Source: Candidatus Enterousia sp. (GTDB lineage Bacteria; Pseudomonadota; Alphaproteobacteria; Rs-D84). From it: 64,000 nucleotides of DNA. The stretch spans positions 179-64,178 of the forward strand of contig JAZROL010000006.1 of NCBI GenBank assembly GCA_045648665.1, read 5' to 3'. The notes beneath the pieces are model-generated. The model was given only the letters and a program-made list of their open reading frames with translations, was not told the origin of the DNA and ran no database searches. Made by a program: the position numbers and the translations under genes. Position 1 is the stretch's first letter. Every line of letters begins with the position of its first letter. Below are positions 8,584 to 59,787 of the stretch, piece by piece.

Positions 8584-8630
8584 CAATCTGATAATCATAA
8601 AATATTCATTATATTTTTTTGTAATACTAC

Positions 8631-8659
8631 TTGACAAATAATATTTTTTGTATTATATT
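8631..8659 (+). promoter_or_regulatory. Sigma70-type promoter (TTGACA-17-TATATT)
   Basis: ttgacaaataatattttttgtattatatt read directly, 36 nt upstream of the 8695 ATG. GGAG RBS at 8685. Confidence 0.55.
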
Positions 8660-8694
8660 TTGGTCGTAACATAACAAAACCACAGGAGTTTATT

Positions 8695-20151: not shown

Positions 20152-20640
20152 CTATTGTTGCACCGGGGTTGTGCGTAACCGCCATCCACTAAAAATGTAT
20201 CCTGAACGGGTTGGGGCTGGCGGTAATGTTATTTTTTCTCCATAAGTGCAAGTCGTTTGTGCAACTATTGTATCCCGGTCATACCAATTAAGGTTTATCA
20301 CATTTGGTGTTCTTGTTGCGTGCATTATATGTCCCAGATTTGCAGAACACGTATTATGAGTATTTGATGATATGTACGGATTGTTGGATGTTTTTACTAT
20401 CCCCTGTGCCAATGTCGGATTGTAATAATACGTTCCACCACTACAAGTATATCCGTCCGGACAATTTGCACATTGTACAGAATTCGCCGGCAGAAATTGC
20501 CCTGCATTACATTCCGCAGATTTAGGCACCGCATAAATATATTTATATCCCAGTCCGCACTTATTTGAAAAATCACTGATTACTTCACCGAATGATGAAG
20601 ATACAAAAACAACAAAAAATAAAACAAATATCTTTTTCAT
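20152..20640 (-). CDS. Cassette 1 gene B: secreted Cys-rich protein with C-terminal Listeria-Bacteroides (Flg_new) repeat
   Basis: Signal peptide MKKIFVLFFVVFVSSSFG. Cys module CNAGQFLPANSVQCANCPDGYTCSGGTYYY. C-terminus INLNWY...TLPPAPTRSGYIFSGWRLRT. Paralogs at 31389 and 57851. Confidence 0.75.
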   Translation of the reverse strand: MKKIFVLFFVVFVSSSFGEVISDFSNKCGLGYKYIYAVPKSAECNAGQFLPANSVQCANCPDGYTCSGGTYYYNPTLAQGIVKTSNNPYISSNTHNTCSANLGHIMHATRTPNVINLNWYDRDTIVAQTTCTYGEKITLPPAPTRSGYIFSGWRLRTTPVQQ

Positions 20641-20653
20641 AATCGCGTTTTAA

Positions 20654-21202
20654 TTAATTTGCATTGTATAATCGGACACGTAATTGGTTATTAGCACCAT
20701 TTGCCAAATATTGTCCACAATCGCTAGTACAATTGGCATCTTTACAACTGGACAAATTGCGATCATATACAAGCGTTCCTTGCAATGGTTCATATATTTT
20801 TGTTTCACCGGTTGGGATAAAACTTGTAAGGCGACACCAACAATAATTTCCACCAGATGTGGTATCAATACCATTTGCCACAGCGGTTGGATCGTTCCCA
20901 TTGGTTGGACTGCATATACCTTTAGCGCACACACGTCCATAACTAAAATTAACACAGCCATCGTCTCCAACACGAGTACCATTTATCGAAGCATCCAAAG
21001 TAGACATATCGTATATTGCGGGTTCCCAACCAGCGAAAGTATATCCAAAATTATCAATATTCGGCGGGGTTATGTCACCACCCGATTCGCAGGTTGTTGT
21101 GTCGTATAATTCACCATTAACATACCATTTTATTGTTTCAGTTTGTGCATACGTAGCAATATTTATAAATATTGCAAACAAAAATAATACGAATCGTTTC
21201 AT
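20654..21202 (-). CDS. Cassette 1 gene A: secreted protein with N-terminal Flg_new repeat and Cys-containing C-terminal domain
   Basis: Start set at MKRFVLFLFAIF (signal peptide, GGAGAG RBS). ETIKWYVNG...GYTFAGWEP. The upstream part of the track ORF is the conserved leader. Confidence 0.75.
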   Translation of the reverse strand: MKRFVLFLFAIFINIATYAQTETIKWYVNGELYDTTTCESGGDITPPNIDNFGYTFAGWEPAIYDMSTLDASINGTRVGDDGCVNFSYGRVCAKGICSPTNGNDPTAVANGIDTTSGGNYCWCRLTSFIPTGETKIYEPLQGTLVYDRNLSSCKDANCTSDCGQYLANGANNQLRVRLYNAN

Positions 21203-21465
21203 TTTACTCTCCATAACCATGTTCAACAATCCGTCCCGGCTGTGCTTTGCACACCCGCGGCCGCGACAAAGAAACACCGCATTGAAAAAACACAAGGCGG
21301 TTGGAGGTTCGAAACAAATTAAGTGGAATTTGTGTGCATATTCAATATATTTTGCAACCCTCCAACTAAATTAAGTTGGAGTTTCCATCCGTACTTAACG
21401 AATGCCACTTACAAGAGGTTTCGACACCTCGTCAAAAGAATTCCTTTTGACATAATTATGTTATC
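21203..21465 (-). promoter_or_regulatory. Conserved structured 5' leader L1 of cassette 1 (candidate cis-regulatory RNA)
   Basis: Homologous to 30363-30626. Hairpins show compensatory changes. Long-range pair GTTGGAGG/CCTCCAAC is followed by a short hairpin plus U-rich tract. Confidence 0.55.
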
Positions 21466-21487
21466 AAAATAATTTTATTTAATGCAA

Positions 21488-30343: not shown

Positions 30344-30362
30344 TATTTATTTTTCCTAATTT

Positions 30363-30626
30363 TTATGTTAACATAACTGTGTCAGCAAGATTTTTGCTGA
30401 TGGGGTATCGAAACCCTTTGTCAGACAGCGCCTGGATATACAGGTGAAATCTCCAACTTTGGTTGGAGGGCTGCAAAATATATTGAATATGCGCACAATA
30501 TTCTGTCTGAATTGTTTCGAACCTCCAACCGCCTTGTGTTTTTTCAATGCGGTGTTTGTTTGTCGCGGCCGCCGGTGTGCGAAGCACAGCTGGGACGGAT
30601 TGTTGAACATGTTTATGGAGAGCAAA
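30363..30626 (+). promoter_or_regulatory. Conserved structured 5' leader L2 of cassette 2 (candidate cis-regulatory RNA)
   Basis: CTCCAAC (30451-57), GGTTGGAGG (30461-69) and CCTCCAACC (30522-30) allow alternative pairings. ACCGC...GCGGT hairpin plus gtttgtttg follows. Positions 30514-30662 match 21167-21315 (reverse complement) with 7 mismatches. Confidence 0.55.
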
Positions 30627-31385
30627 ATGAAACGATTCGTATTATTTTTATTTGCAATATTTGTTTGCCATTTTTCGCACGCCCAAACCGAAACAATAAA
30701 TTGGTATGTTGATGGTAATGTTTATACAACCACAACCAGCGAATCGGGCGCCGATATAATTTTACCCGCCACCCCAACAAAACGTGGATATACATTTCAG
30801 GGCTGGCGTACATATACGCCAATTGAATATCTGGAATCAACAGGGACACAATATATTGATACCAATATTATACCGGATATTGACACAGAAATAATTTTAA
30901 CACAAAAAATAATCGGCAATATAAAAAAACAAAAATATTTGTTTGGATTATATGAAAATACCGGACAATTTTATTTTTACACAACTAACGAATTAATTCT
31001 TCAATGGGCGTGGAGTTTCCAGTATAAAAATTCCTCAGTCACCGCAAATACTGATATACAAACATTTGATATTTTTTCTGAAAATAATATTTCATATTTA
31101 AAAATAAACGATCAAATAAAAGATTCAAAGACAACCACCACACAATCAACAATCAGAACTTTGTTTCTTTTTGGTGCGAACGAGGCTGGAATAGCAAGAT
31201 TATATGGAAACTTAAGAGTATATGCTTTCAAGGTAAAACGACATTCAACAGGTGCTCTTATACATGACTTTATTCCTGTGCTTGACTACGATGGCGTGCC
31301 TTGTATGTACGATAAAGTTGAACACACATTTTATTATAATGCTGGAACAGGTGATTTTATCGCGGGACCAACGACATGGAATTAG
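30627..31385 (+). CDS. Cassette 2 gene A: secreted protein with N-terminal Flg_new repeat and YTPIEYLESTGTQYIDT-type C-terminal domain
   Basis: Signal peptide MKRFVLFLFAIFVCHFSHA. ETINWYVDG...KRGYTFQGW. C-terminal domain shared with 58579-59364. Confidence 0.75.
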   Translation: MKRFVLFLFAIFVCHFSHAQTETINWYVDGNVYTTTTSESGADIILPATPTKRGYTFQGWRTYTPIEYLESTGTQYIDTNIIPDIDTEIILTQKIIGNIKKQKYLFGLYENTGQFYFYTTNELILQWAWSFQYKNSSVTANTDIQTFDIFSENNISYLKINDQIKDSKTTTTQSTIRTLFLFGANEAGIARLYGNLRVYAFKVKRHSTGALIHDFIPVLDYDGVPCMYDKVEHTFYYNAGTGDFIAGPTTWN

Positions 31386-31388
31386 AAT

Positions 31389-31865
31389 ATGAAAAAAATA
31401 TTCATACTATATTTATCATTATTCACATTACCAACGTCCGCATTGGTGACCCAAAATATACCAAACGCTTGTGTCTTTATGGATGCAGATGCTGTGTTTA
31501 CAATCAATGAATATCAGTGTAATCCTGGTGAGTTCTTACCCGCTGATGCTTTGGGTTGTGTACAGTGTCCAAATGGATATACTTGTCCAGGTGGAACATT
31601 TGCATTTGATGAAACCAAAGCACAAGGTTTGGTTCCGAGCAATAATATCACCCAAAATATGAATAAATCATGTGCTGCGAATACTGGACAAATTATGGAT
31701 GCGGTATTTACACCAAACATAATAAACCTGAATTGGTACAGTGTGGGCGATACAGTGTATGAAACAAATACTTGCACATACGGCCAACCGATAACATTAC
31801 CCGCCACAAACCCAACCAGACCAGGTTATATCTTCAGTGGGTGGCGATTAAGAACGAACAATTAG
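31389..31865 (+). CDS. Cassette 2 gene B: secreted Cys-rich protein with C-terminal Flg_new repeat
   Basis: Signal peptide. CNPGEFLPADALGCVQCPNGYTCPGGTFAF. INLNWY...TRPGYIFSGWRLRT. Confidence 0.75.
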   Translation: MKKIFILYLSLFTLPTSALVTQNIPNACVFMDADAVFTINEYQCNPGEFLPADALGCVQCPNGYTCPGGTFAFDETKAQGLVPSNNITQNMNKSCAANTGQIMDAVFTPNIINLNWYSVGDTVYETNTCTYGQPITLPATNPTRPGYIFSGWRLRTNN

Positions 31866-31957: not shown

Positions 31958-32274
31958 CCGGATGCCCTGAAAGGAAGGAAAGGAGAAAAAGAAATGGGCA
32001 TCCTAAACTTTTGTTTGGGCCCAAAGTCCAGAGGAGAGAGAATGTAGGAGGGAGTCTGAAAACTCTGGGCCCGATATTGTCAAACGATTTTCATCCTTTG
32101 ACGAATCGAAATGTAATACATAAAAATACATTTGTCAAGTATTTTGTCAAAAAAATTTTTTGGTCTAATTTTTAGATAGGAATACAAACTGATAAATACA
32201 GGTTGCGATGACTAGGAATTTCCACTAATATTAGAATGTTGAATTGGAAAACCAAATACAACAAGGAGAAAAAG

Positions 32275-32517
32275 ATGACACACGAAGATGTCTGGCGTGC
32301 AATAGAATGTTTCGCCAAAGAGCGTGAAATGTCGTGTTCCGGTCTGGCAAAACGCAGCGGTTTGGATCCAACAACATTTAACAGAAGCAAGCGCTGGTCA
32401 AAAGAAGGGCAACCAAGATGGCCTTCTACGAACAGTATTTCAAAAATATTGTCTTCTACTGGGGCTTCTTTGGAAGATTTTACCAAATTTATTCCATCTC
32501 ACGATCATACTATGTAA
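32275..32517 (+). CDS. XRE/Cro-CI-type HTH transcriptional regulator (80 aa)
   Basis: MTHEDVWRAIECFAKEREMSCSGLAKRSGLDPTTFNRSKR... has an HTH pattern. AAGGAG RBS before this ATG. Confidence 0.6.
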   Translation: MTHEDVWRAIECFAKEREMSCSGLAKRSGLDPTTFNRSKRWSKEGQPRWPSTNSISKILSSTGASLEDFTKFIPSHDHTM

Positions 32518-35056: not shown

Positions 35057-35161
35057 AAATATTTTTTAACTTTTATTCTTTACTATTTTATTTGTTTCAT
35101 ATAAAATGGAATCAAGAACAAAATAATTTTGTTCTATCCAAAAACTTAAAAGGAGAGAATT

Positions 35162-35485
35162 ATGTTCTTTGGTTCTAAGAAAAAATGTGCATGTGCAAAA
35201 CCAGCTGCAAAACCAGCCGCTAAAAAAGCACCTGCAAAAAAAGTTGCTGCTAAAAAACCAGCCGCAAAAAAACCAGTTGCTAAAAAAGCAGCAGTAAAAA
35301 AACCAGTTGCAAAAAAAGTAGTTGCTAAAAAAGCACCTGCAAAAAAAGTTGCTGCTAAAAAACCAGTTGCTAAAAAAGCACCTGCAAAGAAAGTAGTTGC
35401 TAAAAAACCAGTTGCTAAAAAAGCACCTGCAAAAAAAGTTGCTGCTAAAAAACCAGCTGCTAAAAAAGTAGCAAAGAAAAAATAA
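35162..35485 (+). CDS. Histone H1-like Lys/Ala/Pro-repeat protein (107 aa)
   Basis: Almost entirely (A/P/V)AKK(P/A/V) repeats. Strong RBS aaaaggagag. Two terminators follow. Confidence 0.7.
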
Positions 35486-35514
35486 TTTTGCGCGATTTTG
35501 CGTAATTTTTATTG

Positions 35515-35586
35515 CCCCGAAACACAAGCGTTTCGGGGTTTTTGATAAAATTTTCAGTTAGATATTATGTCTAACTGAATTTTTTA
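35515..35586 (+). terminator. Two tandem intrinsic terminators
   Basis: CCCCGAAAC-acaagc-GTTTCGGGG + ttttt. TCAGTTAGA-tattatg-TCTAACTGA + ttttttattt. Confidence 0.75.
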
Positions 35587-35704
35587 TTTGGATAATCCGT
35601 TTGTGGACCCTGAATTAATATTTTGTTTTATGGCGCGGTATTTCGCATAACCATCAATTAAAATAAAAAGGTTTTTAATTTAATTTTTAACAAAAGGATT
35701 TTTT

Positions 35705-41272: not shown

Positions 41273-42280
41273 CTATTTCATAACAATCATAACAACTTTG
41301 TGCATGGTTTGTGCATGTATTTTTTCATCAGGATTAGATACATGACCATATTTTTTACCATGTGTATCTTGACGTGTGACCGCAATTTGACCATCAACCA
41401 CATCTGTGTCAGTCAATGCTGAAAAATCAGTGTCAATAAACATGGCCAAATCACCGACGTCAGGTGTGGAATTGGCATCTACAAAAACATACGAGTTTTC
41501 AGGAACAAAACCACCCAAACGTTTAGAATTAGGAACAACTGCGTATATGCCTTTGCGTCCTTCTAATTCAACTGGTGCAACAATCATTACTTCATCAGAT
41601 TTGTGTAATTTGATTGTTTTTCCGTTTGGATTGCCGAAAACAGGAACCAATTTCTTACGAGCGTTATCATATAATTGTGCGCCGTATAACCCGCCCTGTA
41701 CATCCAATCCAGACATAGGATTGCCAGGTTCTAAAACAGATTTGACGCGTTCTTTGACTTTATTAATTTGTTTTGTTAATTCGCCGGCATTATACATTTT
41801 TGCGATTTCTTCAAATAATTGATCCGCGGTATAGCCAAATGTTTTTGCTAATACATCAATTTCGTCTTCGTATACTTCGCGTTGACCGACCTCGATTTTA
41901 TGGTACACAGACAAAGTCATATGTGATGATTTTGCGGCCTCTGCGATTGTTTTGCCAGAATTTTGACGAATCTTGCGCAATCCGGAACCAAAAACTTTCA
42001 AACCACTGTCTTCATTATCTGTTAAACGACGTTTTATTTCACTTTGCCATTGGTTGGCAACTGAATCAGATTCGTGAATAAAGATATCAGATAACTTGCA
42101 ACCAAGAATAGAACACACGTTTAATAACTGTTTTTGGTTAAGACGACGAACGCCTTTTTCAATCTTTGATACAGCAGACAAAGACAAATTTGCACGACGT
42201 GCCAATTCAGTCATTTTCATGCCTTTCGATGCACGAATGTTTCGAATGTTATTTGGAAAAATTATTTCTTCTTGGGCCAT
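41273..42280 (-). CDS. Double XRE-type HTH regulator with S24/LexA-like C-terminal beta-domain (catalytic Ser-Lys not evident)
   Basis: Two HTH_3 units (IRNIRASKGMKMTELARRANLSLSAVSKIEKG; LRKIRQNSGKTIAEAAKSSHMTLSVYHKIEVG). The C-terminal 130 aa resemble the CI/LexA fold but have no GDSM-type serine. Confidence 0.65.
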   Translation of the reverse strand: MAQEEIIFPNNIRNIRASKGMKMTELARRANLSLSAVSKIEKGVRRLNQKQLLNVCSILGCKLSDIFIHESDSVANQWQSEIKRRLTDNEDSGLKVFGSGLRKIRQNSGKTIAEAAKSSHMTLSVYHKIEVGQREVYEDEIDVLAKTFGYTADQLFEEIAKMYNAGELTKQINKVKERVKSVLEPGNPMSGLDVQGGLYGAQLYDNARKKLVPVFGNPNGKTIKLHKSDEVMIVAPVELEGRKGIYAVVPNSKRLGGFVPENSYVFVDANSTPDVGDLAMFIDTDFSALTDTDVVDGQIAVTRQDTHGKKYGHVSNPDEKIHAQTMHKVVMIVMK

Positions 42281-57850: not shown

Positions 57851-58582
57851 TTATTGTTCTTGGGGTTGGGTTGTGCGGAGGCGCCACCCACTGAATATAT
57901 ACCCTGGTTTTGTTGGGTTGGTGTCTGGTAAAGTAATCTTTTGACCATATATACATTTTTGTGCGTCGGGTTGCACTGTTAAAGGTATTGTTGCGTTTTC
58001 ATCTAAATACCATTGTAAATTTATCACTTTATAACATTGGTCAATTGACGTAGAAGCGGCCGGTGAATACGGCGTATCACTTGGACACGGGTTTAATCCC
58101 TGAGGGGTTGTTTCGTTAAATGTAAGTTGTCCACCATGGCAATAATAGTTTTCCAAACACTGTCTGCATTCATCAACCCCGGCGGGTAAATAATATCCCG
58201 GATTACAATTATGAACATTTGGAATAAAAGTTGCCGTAATATTTGCAACATTGTTGAGTGCTCGCAGAAAATCAGTTTTACAACCATTTCTTATATTTTC
58301 CGTGACTTGCACTTTGAATTTATTACCTTGGTCATATTCTTCATTAAAAGTGAAAGTTCCACCATTACAATCATAAACATCAGGACACATAACACAACCA
58401 TCATTATTTGCCGGGACATAATAGCCAGAACCACATTGATATTGATTTGGTGTAAAAGTGGCTAATAAAATTGTATCTGTATTTAAACTGCTCGAACAAC
58501 CATTTGTAATATTTGACATAATCAAATCGTCCGCAAAAGCAGATACCGGTATTATTAAAAATAATAACCATTTATATTTCAT
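57851..58582 (-). CDS. Cassette 3 gene B: secreted protein with two Cys-rich modules and C-terminal Flg_new repeat
   Basis: Signal peptide. CGSGYYVPANNDGCVMCPDVYDCNGGTFTF and CNPGYYLPAGVDECRQCLENYYCHGGQLTF. INLQWY...TKPGYIFSGWRLRT. Confidence 0.75.
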   Translation of the reverse strand: MKYKWLLFLIIPVSAFADDLIMSNITNGCSSSLNTDTILLATFTPNQYQCGSGYYVPANNDGCVMCPDVYDCNGGTFTFNEEYDQGNKFKVQVTENIRNGCKTDFLRALNNVANITATFIPNVHNCNPGYYLPAGVDECRQCLENYYCHGGQLTFNETTPQGLNPCPSDTPYSPAASTSIDQCYKVINLQWYLDENATIPLTVQPDAQKCIYGQKITLPDTNPTKPGYIFSGWRLRTTQPQEQ

Positions 58583-59364
58583 TGTAATGCTGGACCTGCT
58601 ATAAATTGCCCTGTGCCTTGGTTATAGAAAAATTGACCTGTCACTCTGTCAAACATACAGGGTGTGCCCGCACCATCAAGGACAGGGATAAGATCACGAA
58701 CAAGTGAGTCATTGTTGTATACCTTAAGGAAATAAAATCTCATTGGAGAAGCTCTTTGTACAACAGCCCCAGCATTGTTAAGAGTACATAACAAAAGCGG
58801 TAAAGAGGTTGTTCCATTACTTGTAAATGTATGTGATCCAACAATAAAAGATTCTTCATATAAGATTGTTTCTTTGTTTTCAATTTTAACTCGGTATTTT
58901 TTATTTTGTTTTATTGTTATATTTGTAAGCCAACGGTCGTTTATAGCCGCACCAAAAAAATCTACAGTTATTGTTTTATTGGAGTTATATCCAATATTGA
59001 ATCCTGCTCCGCCAGAAGAAGTGTTTCGTGAACCTAATAAACTTGTTCCGTCATTAATAATATCTGTCACTACGAAACTAATATCATAGTGCATATTATT
59101 TGTCACTATTAACCCAGTATCAATCCACTGTGTTCCTGTGCTTTCAAGATATTCAATCGGTGTGTATAATTGTTTTATTTGCCACCCAGTAAATGTATAA
59201 CCATATTTTGTTGGCGGGGTGGCGGGCAGAATTAAATCACTATCAATCACACATGTTGAATTTTCGTATACAGTCCCATCTTCATTTAACCAGTGCAGAT
59301 TTATTGTGTCTGCAAATACCACATTACAGAACAGTAATGATAATAATATTAAAAACCGTTTCAT
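58579..59364 (-). CDS. Cassette 3 gene A: secreted protein with N-terminal Flg_new repeat and YTPIEYLESTGTQWIDT-type domain
   Basis: Start set at MKRFLILLSLLFCNVVFA. TINLHWLNEDG...KYGYTFTGW. ATGA overlap with gene B. Confidence 0.75.
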   Translation of the reverse strand: MKRFLILLSLLFCNVVFADTINLHWLNEDGTVYENSTCVIDSDLILPATPPTKYGYTFTGWQIKQLYTPIEYLESTGTQWIDTGLIVTNNMHYDISFVVTDIINDGTSLLGSRNTSSGGAGFNIGYNSNKTITVDFFGAAINDRWLTNITIKQNKKYRVKIENKETILYEESFIVGSHTFTSNGTTSLPLLLCTLNNAGAVVQRASPMRFYFLKVYNNDSLVRDLIPVLDGAGTPCMFDRVTGQFFYNQGTGQFIAGPALQ

Positions 59365-59720
59365 CCCTTTTTCCTTTTTTTTCTTGGTTCTGTTTCCAGA
59401 ATGCAGAGTTCTCCTCTGGCTAGAGGAGTACGGTCGAAGACCGGGAGGTGTCGCTATAACATAATTTATTCTTGGGCGACACCCCGTCCACTTCGTGTCC
59501 ACCCCTCTAGCCAGAGGGGAACTAAAAAACACCGCCAAAGAAATCAGGCGGTCGGGGAGTTCAAAAATCATTAGTTCAGTGATTCCGCGGTCTTTATATA
59601 TACGCCAACGGCTCCCCAACCTTGTTGTGTCAGGGATAACAACGGTGCAAAAAAACACCGAAAATATCAAATAACGATGCGTTTTGCACCGGAACTAACG
59701 GGCTTTTGATAACCCCGAAC
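59365..59720 (-). promoter_or_regulatory. Structured 5' leader L3 of cassette 3 (diverged homolog of L1/L2)
   Basis: GGTTGGGGAG/CTCCCCGACC long-range pair (59612-21 / 59550-59). ACCGCC-N10-GGCGGT + UGUUUUUU terminator-like hairpin (59524-59552). Nested inverted repeats at 59411-59519. Confidence 0.5.
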
Positions 59721-59787
59721 CCAATTCCCATTGGATTCTATTTAATTCTAGCAAAAACATATTTTTAAATAAAGTGTTTTTTATTAA

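Follow-up and report, generated by a model that had tools for sequence, protein, structure and literature searches.

A conserved two-fold leader RNA, probably a transcription attenuator of accessory genes, in Candidatus Enterousia and related Alphaproteobacteria

Transcription attenuators, among them riboswitch expression platforms and the T-box, PyrR and trp-type leaders, are located between promoter and gene and use three successive, mutually exclusive strands, the third of which overlaps an intrinsic terminator. Regulons of the cyclic di-GMP (c-di-GMP) riboswitches c-di-GMP-I/GEMM-I comprise dozens of copies per genome, often placed before secreted or surface proteins and regulators. A third system, sRNA-Xcc1 (RF02221), is a discrete RNA of 88 nucleotides (nt) on Northern blots, of unknown mechanism (PMC2996969), which precedes symE in Xanthomonas integron cassettes (10.1101/2025.06.18.660453) and an ORF6N gene in APSE phages (10.1101/2020.03.17.996009) and forms tandem arrays in Xylella (PMC12189769). 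Here we describe a leader RNA that resembles each of these systems in part, present in a 64,000-nt stretch of Candidatus Enterousia sp. (assembly GCA_045648665.1, contig JAZROL010000006.1, positions 179 to 64,178), hereafter the window. Ca. Enterousia and its relatives belong to the order Rs-D84 and are uncultured gut and rumen bacteria with genomes below 1 Mb (PMC12306168). The leader is a folded RNA of about 185 nt that had not been catalogued before, and we regard it as virtually certain that this conserved structured RNA is a genuine feature. Judged from sequence, it is probably a general cis-acting transcription attenuator, combining alternative pairing with a terminator, in which termination and read-through would be the two outcomes.

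A covariance-model (CM) search of the window located three copies of the leader and no more; the z-scores compare the minimum free energy (MFE) of each copy with that of dinucleotide shuffles.

21265 to 21453, minus strand: leader copy 1, type 1; CM score 113.3 bits, z-score -5.2
30379 to 30564, plus strand: leader copy 2, type 1; CM (model R1) score 110.2 bits, E = 1e-30, z-score -4.1
59520 to 59739, minus strand: leader copy 3, type 2; CM score 38.1 bits, E = 5e-9, z-score -8.1

A weak CM match at 35430-35595 on the minus strand (E = 0.0028) was rejected as a candidate fourth copy, since it falls within a low-complexity region. The initial annotation had taken the interval 30363-30626 as the conserved leader, which is too wide: the conserved RNA spans 30379-30564, and the 3′ end of that interval, about 60 nt, lies outside it. 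In each window copy an extended −10 promoter lies about 5 nt before the start of the RNA, and a hairpin with a U-tract closes it shortly before a gene. As had been noted, copies 1 and 2 can be aligned end to end, and 30514-30662 differs from the reverse complement of 21167-21315 at exactly 7 of 149 nt. Copy 3 follows this architecture in other sequences, its P3 hairpin being longer, and nhmmer found relatives of it in 31 loci. Hence, two subtypes are distinguished, type 1 resembling copies 1 and 2, and type 2 resembling copy 3.

The pairing elements are described on copy 2, all on the plus strand. Double changes are pairs in which both partners differ between leaders.

30381 to 30401, plus strand: P0, the 5′ hairpin GTCAGCAA / TTGCTGAT with loop GATTT; helix 1, double changes at 7-8 of 8 pairs
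30402 to 30416, plus strand: segments a (GGGG, 30402-05), b (TCGAAAC, 30408-14) and a′ (CCC, 30414-16)
30421 to 30428, plus strand: c, the 5′ strand of P2, TCAGACAG, partner of c′ at 30503-30510; helix 4, double changes at 7 of 7 pairs
30429 to 30446, plus strand: P3 hairpin CGCCTG / CAGGTG; helix 5, double changes at 4 of 4 pairs
30451 to 30457, plus strand: d (CTCCAAC), the putative anti-antiterminator strand, forming P4 with d′; helix 6, 95-98% paired, double changes at 3-4 pairs
30461 to 30469, plus strand: d′ (GGTTGGAGG), the shared strand, partner of d in fold 1 or of d″ in fold 2
30471 to 30494, plus strand: P5 hairpin with an A/U-rich loop; helix 7, double changes at 4-5 of 5 pairs
30495 to 30515, plus strand: P6 hairpin ACAAT / ATTGT, its loop carrying c′ (30503-30510); 95-98% paired
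30514 to 30530, plus strand: b′ (GTTTCGA, 30514-20) followed by a″/d″ (CCTCCAACC, 30522-30)
30528 to 30563, plus strand: terminator hairpin ACCGC...GCGGT (30528-30553) and U-tract GTTTGTTTGT (30554-30563)

The four hairpins that the initial annotation described are genuine and correspond to P0, a:a′, P3 and P6. It lacked two long-range helices, P1b (30408-30414 with 30514-20) and P2 (30421-28 with 30503-10). Segment a can pair locally with a′ or distally with CCTC at 30522-25, and segment b pairs with b′ in P1b. Two folds result. Fold 1 consists of P0, P1 (a:a″ plus b:b′), P2 (c:c′), P3, P4 (d:d′), P5 and the intact terminator. In fold 2, d′ (GGUUGGAGG) leaves d and pairs with d″ (CCUCCAACC), closing a three-way junction with P5 and P6. 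The pairing of GGTTGGAGG with either CTCCAAC or CCTCCAACC had been predicted before and holds, as does the contact of the latter with the terminator, with whose stem it shares 3 nt. Since d″ holds the first ACC of the terminator and the CCUC of P1, fold 2 is incompatible with both, consuming three of the six terminator-stem pairs and the CCUC that P1 requires. Cassette 3, the operon behind copy 3, retains the equivalent helix in other letters, GGTTGGGGAG/CTCCCCGACC, followed by ACCGCC-N10-GGCGGT-TGTTTTTT, again as had been reported.

The covariation behind this structure is overwhelming. The CM, R1, was built on six type-1 leaders, for which a structure had been derived by hand, and matched 37 type-1 leaders from genomes at 77-197 bits and type-2 leaders at 20-46 bits. 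In the 37 leaders 97.1% of the cells were paired and 34 of the 49 pairs showed double changes; the covariation score was 0.515, against 0.166 in shuffled alignments (none of 500 reached it) and at most 0.076 when the partners were slid. An independent set of 110 metagenome leaders gave 97.4% paired cells, double changes at 41 of the 49 pairs and a score of 0.570 versus 0.177 shuffled. The observation of the initial annotation is confirmed, and the evidence for it is stronger than the window sequence by itself could show. The long-range helices are the most variable parts: P1b and P2 differ in sequence in almost every copy and their complementarity is always kept, with double changes at 6-7 of the 7 pairs of P1b and four pair types at most positions of P2. 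In copy 3, P2 reads TAGTTC/GAACTA and P1b TCAAAA/TTTTGA. The length of P2 averaged 8.3-8.7 base pairs (bp) between cognate strands and 4.3-4.9 bp between non-cognate ones in both subtypes. For type 2, support comes from this cognate versus non-cognate test, a MAFFT alignment read by eye and RNAalifold. The local hairpin a:a′ alternates between GAGG with CCU and GGGG with CCC across copies (column pair GC:65, AU:23, GU:18), one pair of P6 alternates between AU:58 and UA:41, and the terminator, helix 8, covaries as well (GC:28 / AU:8; stem CCRCC/GGYGG). Altogether, more than 140 diverged copies keep the structure rather than the sequence.

These data bear directly on two rival readings. In the first, the conservation stems from a translated upstream open reading frame (ORF) or leader peptide, or from a recent duplication of cassettes 1 and 2. 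An ORF does run from GTG 30444 in frame into the gene, about 60-75% of type-1 copies have an AUG at the foot of P0 on its 3′ side, and a 151-nt stretch with 95% identity between copies 1 and 2 extends into the signal-peptide codons. Against it, (i) leader lengths are evenly spread over the three residues modulo 3; (ii) the putative peptides have 6 to 59 codons and cross hypervariable helices; (iii) the AUG column covaries as a P0 pair, is ACG, AUU or UCG in some copies, and type 2 has no AUG; (iv) the seven differences between copies 1 and 2 fall on codon positions 1,1,3,1,1,3,3 of the upstream frame, with no synonymous-site bias, which agrees with the initial annotation; and (v) the more than 140 diverged copies preserve structure and not sequence. 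A search of the leaders for a leader-peptide attenuator revealed no start column of conserved length. We consider this reading exceedingly improbable, the least likely of those weighed here.

The second takes the leader as a DNA-level element, either a mobile repeat resembling miniature inverted-repeat transposable elements (MITE) or repetitive extragenic palindromes (REP), or an attC-like folded single-strand recombination site, so that the structure would be one of DNA hairpins. The copies are indeed numerous and dispersed, lie beside restriction-modification genes, XRE regulators and a helicase, and sRNA-Xcc1 resides in integron cassettes (10.1101/2025.06.18.660453). However, G:U pairs are frequent and strand-specific, and CM scores collapse on the reverse strand; with about 190 bits in the sense and about 20 bits in the reverse orientation, the fold belongs to the sense strand. 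The orientation is fixed, with a promoter upstream and a gene downstream, terminal inverted repeats are lacking, no integrase-linked array occurs within the window, and decaying mobile repeats are not expected to yield copy-specific compensated helices. A DNA element is therefore very hard to credit.

Fold 2 can be seen in strands that must satisfy two partners. In the type-1 alignment, which was not fitted to fold 2, d′:d″ is 99.4% paired with three compensated pairs and P6 (RCAAU/AUUGU) is 98.4% paired. The strand GGUUGGAGG covaries with its upstream and with its downstream partner. Related loci outside the window, numbered with the prefix L, display the three-way covariation of d, d′ and d″: L001 and L008 have CUCCUG / GGCAGGAGG / CCUCCUGCC, L024 and L069 have CUCCUA / GGUAGGAGG / CCUCCUGCC, and the type-2 triplet is CCCUGAC / GGUCGGGGAG / CUCCCCGACC, with extra compensations in L005, L033, L072 and L076. 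The leader thus has the mark of an attenuator, a d′:d″ helix that excludes the terminator stem and is itself compensated in types 1 and 2. P6 shares two nt with P1b, and c′ in the P6 loop has very short flanks; we interpret a:a′ and P6 as either parts of fold 2 or kinetic intermediates.

Comparison with curated families gives fold 2 a sub-threshold counterpart. The Rfam scan that the initial annotation called for yielded no family for the leader at the gathering score: in the window, Rfam 15 reported only 4 transfer RNAs. Scans at permissive E-values of the leader and 10 related loci found no riboswitch, T-box or ribosomal-protein-leader family; they returned sRNA-Xcc1 recurrently and, besides it, weak non-significant matches to unrelated small RNA and leader families. 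Hence, the earlier statement that no Rfam family is recognizable stands at threshold, and needs the qualification that the fold-2 core recurrently matches sRNA-Xcc1 below it. The sRNA-Xcc1 scores are 29.7 bits for window copy 2, 38.1 for L044 (E = 0.0039 when 57 kb were searched and 1.5e-5 for 221 nt), 31.6 for L003 and 27.8 for L009, all four under the gathering score of 53 bits. The three-way junction is complete in each, model positions 1-87 of 87 being aligned with few non-canonical pairs. Both RNAs have, from d′ to d″ in the leader, a G/C-rich helix of 9 bp that encloses two hairpins with short junctions, and the letters GG..GG.GGGC, AAUA.AAU, CUU and UU.GA.CC.CC..CC are common to the leader and the sRNA-Xcc1 consensus; both lie upstream of accessory genes in multiple and tandem copies. 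They differ in that sRNA-Xcc1 is an 88-nt stand-alone RNA of gamma- and betaproteobacteria and mobile elements, whereas the leader belongs to Rs-D84 Alphaproteobacteria and embeds its core in about 185 nt, with a competing 5′ domain and a separate terminator after the core. The junction letters of sRNA-Xcc1 are matched partly in b′, which is hypervariable in the leader. A BLAST search of plasmids with the Rfam sRNA-Xcc1 consensus gave no match. On model alignments, then, the curated sRNA-Xcc1 structure independently matches fold 2, whose closing helix and P6 covary in the leader family, and the leader is probably a distant relative or an elaboration of the sRNA-Xcc1 fold, not a member by the Rfam score.

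The surroundings of the leader define a compact transcription unit. The window promoters, read from the sequence, are as follows.

30346 to 30374, plus strand: promoter of copy 2, with a weak −35 TTTATT and the extended −10 TGtTAACAT (30366-30374)
21458 to 21487, minus strand: promoter of copy 1, TTGCAT-N18-TAACAT with an upstream TG
59745 to 59753, minus strand: extended −10 of copy 3, TGcTAGAAT

The extended −10 TGnTAnAAT is common to the 37 leaders aligned at P0 and ends 5 nt before P0 / TGTCAG; in the 70 nt upstream of P0 the promoter often follows directly on the terminator of the gene before it. At the other end, the leader carries an intrinsic terminator, that is, a G+C-rich hairpin directly before a U-tract, and at least 5 U occur in the 8 nt after the stem in 141 of the 157 leaders with a recognizable d″-terminator. 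A simple terminator scanner missed that of copy 2 owing to its long loop. The leader is always oriented toward the downstream gene, and the distance from the stem end to the ATG of the first long ORF has a median of 33 nt. As this spacer is too short for another promoter, the gene would be transcribed only by read-through.

Fold 1 is the MFE structure or close to it. Forcing d′:d″ costs on average 8.6 kcal/mol in the full leader and 2.8 kcal/mol before the 3′ strand of the terminator exists; thus termination would be the default, and the antiterminated fold would be reachable during transcription. Taking these elements together, we propose a co-transcriptional model for the leader. In the model, the module would run from the extended −10 promoter through the leader of about 185 nt and the terminator to the ribosome-binding site and the gene, with the RNA starting at P0. 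Fold 1, the thermodynamic default, would stop transcription at the U-tract and release an RNA of about 185 nt, while fold 2 would let RNA polymerase continue into the gene. The choice could be made as the RNA emerges: the a:a′ and P6 loops would hold b and c′, delaying the clamps P1b and P2, at a stage, before the 3′ strand of the terminator is made, when the folds are predicted to be separated by only about 3 kcal/mol. The decision might then lie with a trans-acting factor of general function (an RNA-binding or antitermination protein, NusA/NusG) or depend on polymerase speed, rather than on a metabolite pocket.

The conservation pattern bears on that last point. In the type-1 consensus, positions conserved in at least 90% of the leaders are almost only those of a, d, d′, d″ and the terminator. 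That d, d′ and d″ are strongly conserved does not call for a trans factor; any change there must be compensated twice. P5 is the sole notably conserved loop of type 1. A small-molecule riboswitch, for instance for a second messenger, controlling a secretome regulon in the manner of the multi-copy c-di-GMP riboswitches, would account for a complex multi-helix fold with an expression platform, for many copies per genome often before secreted proteins, and for the moderate conservation of the P5 loop. However, no known riboswitch family was matched even at E-values up to 5-10; sequence conservation hardly extends beyond the switch strands and terminator; P5 is absent from the type-2 leaders L032 and L051 and a plain hairpin in L009, L038 and L074; the junction strands b, b′, c and c′ are hypervariable; and almost no unpaired sequence is common to types 1 and 2. 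The leader likewise departs from c-di-GMP-I/GEMM-I in having no Rfam match and no universally conserved unpaired core, and in including restriction-modification and repair genes among its targets. From the named attenuators it differs in having no leader peptide, no match to T-box, PyrR, ANTAR-type or riboswitch models and no conserved sensor pocket, and in possessing two extra hypervariable long-range clamps (P1b and P2) and local hairpins that hold strands. The riboswitch is accordingly an improbable option, and the pattern of conservation argues against a metabolite pocket and would favour a general factor or a kinetic decision. Of the ligand-, protein- or tRNA-sensing attenuator suggested by the initial annotation, the alternative pairing, the terminator and the covariation are borne out, and the riboswitch variant is weakened, conserved sequence being almost confined to the switch strands.

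The genes behind the leader extend its reach well beyond the window. In the window these are the following.

20654 to 21202 and 20152 to 20640, minus strand: the two genes of copy 1
30627 to 31385 and 31389 to 31865, plus strand: cassette 2 operon, a secreted InlB-B-repeat protein (PF09479) and a secreted Cys-rich protein with a C-terminal B-repeat
57851 to 59364, minus strand: the two-gene operon of copy 3

Encoded downstream are secreted proteins with Listeria-Bacteroides (InlB B) repeats (PF09479); the first of these proteins has 853 database relatives. Among species-representative genomes, the related loci belong almost only to Candidatus Enterousia and unnamed Alphaproteobacteria metagenome-assembled genomes (MAGs) from rumen or gut; the MAG RUG12675 holds more than 20 paralogues of the downstream protein. 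In an nhmmer search with the three window leaders, the same leader was found directly upstream at about 65 of 80 homologous loci, and nhmmer and CM searches did not find it at the loci of protein relatives in Bacilli, Clostridia and Bacteroidales. Searching gut and rumen metagenomes with a DNA pattern for the leader alone, GGTTGGAGGGN{44,72}CCTCCAACCRCC, retrieved at least 120 stretches. A phage-borne leader was ruled out, the pattern occurring in only 2 of 2.9 million viral contigs. The genes so linked are diverse: the large secreted B-repeat/Cys-rich superfamily, other secreted families, a UvrD-like helicase, an EcoRI-type methylase, an Mrr-type endonuclease, a UDG-family protein and an ABC exporter. 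About 12% encode small XRE-type helix-turn-helix (HTH) proteins of 60-117 amino acids (aa). The initial annotation had regarded the leader as shared by the cassettes; the module instead precedes many unrelated gene families, sometimes in tandem without a gene between. By this distribution across loci, it is a general module for accessory genes of the lineage and not a property of three cassettes.

The XRE-like HTH proteins are encoded at L081, L085, L108, L111, L119, L145, L146, L151, L156, L165 and L171, one subgroup having no Pfam hit, and could be regulators inside the same regulon. In the window, a hidden Markov model of this small HTH family matched solely a domain in a 335-aa ORF (41273-42280) without a leader. 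A scan of the window for orphan d, d′ or d″ sites able to act in trans found none outside the leaders.

The tandem modules raise a further reading, in which the leaders are primarily small RNA genes that stand alone and act in trans, a family related to sRNA-Xcc1 whose members each have a promoter and terminator of their own, and read-through into the gene is secondary. Complete promoter-leader-terminator modules without an ORF between them occur four times in L119 (155-1006, plus strand) and twice each in L145 (2300-2674, minus strand) and L100 (6307-6739, minus strand); the four of L119 precede one gene, and the L119 and L100 arrays precede related small proteins of unknown function. The core matches sRNA-Xcc1 recurrently, that RNA is itself discrete (PMC2996969) and arrayed in tandem in Xylella (PMC12189769), and the stable state, fold 1, leaves the terminator intact. 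Yet most copies have an ATG about 33 nt after the stem, which leaves no space for a promoter and makes the gene dependent on read-through; the orientation relative to the gene is fixed; selection keeps a second fold whose sole evident effect is to undo the terminator; and variability is greatest in internal helices instead of in an exposed seed. A transcript of about 88 nt like sRNA-Xcc1, starting at the closing helix, is argued against by the position of the leader promoter, about 80 nt before the core. We judge free-standing small RNA genes unlikely, though somewhat less so than a riboswitch, and a serious rival all the same.

Several points weigh against the attenuator that we prefer. A free-standing RNA product would explain the tandem modules no less well than an attenuator does, and about 10% of the copies have poor U-tracts. 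The distal a:a″ pairing (helix 2) lacks covariation of its own, and P6 and P2 could coexist as a pseudoknot instead of being alternatives. The CM alignments, moreover, are biased toward the fold-1 structure used for fitting, and in the metagenome set the d′ and d″ columns were fixed by the search pattern.

A more specific version of the attenuator can be offered as a tentative possibility, one that we hold to be rather doubtful. The leader would be ligand-free and kinetically decided, a:a′ and P6 delaying P1b and P2 while polymerase speed or a general elongation factor sets read-through. It would gate a few per cent of the transcription units of a genome below 1 Mb (secretome, XRE regulators, restriction-modification, repair, exporters), and sRNA-Xcc1 RNAs would be the antiterminator core of the same ancient cis-regulatory class.

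The leader constitutes a large and very well-supported new family of structured RNA, with a clean two-state design and three-way covariation. If one RNA module controls dozens of accessory genes, especially of secreted families, it is probably a main lever of the interaction with host or neighbours. It also provides a first functional lead for sRNA-Xcc1, annotated in many pathogen genomes with no known mechanism.

The regions between leader and gene hold elements of their own.

30565 to 30626, plus strand: spacer of copy 2, with a GC-rich hairpin and the ribosome-binding site GGAGAG (30617-22); present in copies 1 and 2 only
59365 to 59519, minus strand: GC-rich palindromic insert (an inverted repeat) from the copy-3 terminator to the gene, outside the leader family

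The GC-rich hairpin of copies 1 and 2, GTCGCGGCCGCCGGTGTGCGAAGCACAGCTGGGAC, lies between terminator and ribosome-binding site at 30565-30605 and 21225-21264 (minus strand). The copy-3 insert, of about 155 nt, folds with -73 kcal/mol, has relatives in L041 (3751-3908), where they follow a gene and occur on both strands, and looks like a small mobile REP/MITE-like repeat. At several metagenome loci similar GC-rich inserts give rise to spurious Pro/Arg/Gly-rich ORFs after the leader. Copies 1 and 2 form an inverted repeat of 151 nt with 95% identity (21167-21317 / 30512-30662) that covers the 3′ part of the leader, the spacer and the signal-peptide codons; in the 135 nt upstream of it identity drops to about 75%, a pattern suggestive of recent gene conversion. 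The repeat could also serve to invert the 9.2-kb housekeeping segment that the two copies flank.

Every cassette consists of two genes in one operon, for a B-repeat protein and a Cys-rich protein. The second genes of cassettes 2 and 3 share a 74-nt inverted repeat of 80% identity (31773-31846 / 57882-57955) that corresponds to their conserved C-terminal B-repeat (...GYIFSGWRLRT). Downstream of cassette 2, a 93-aa ORF (32236-32517, plus strand) with no leader before it seems, by eye only, to have a repressor-like HTH N-terminus. Two intergenic regions share a 48-nt inverted repeat of 79% identity (8613-8660 / 32109-32156) that contains TTGACAAATAATATTTTTTGTATTATA and may be a shared promoter or operator. 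Finally, a 15-nt periodic repeat in 17 overlapping copies (35159-35527) encodes a 107-aa Lys/Ala/Pro-rich protein (35162-35485, AKKPAAKK repeats) that resembles histone H1 or another basic DNA-binding protein.

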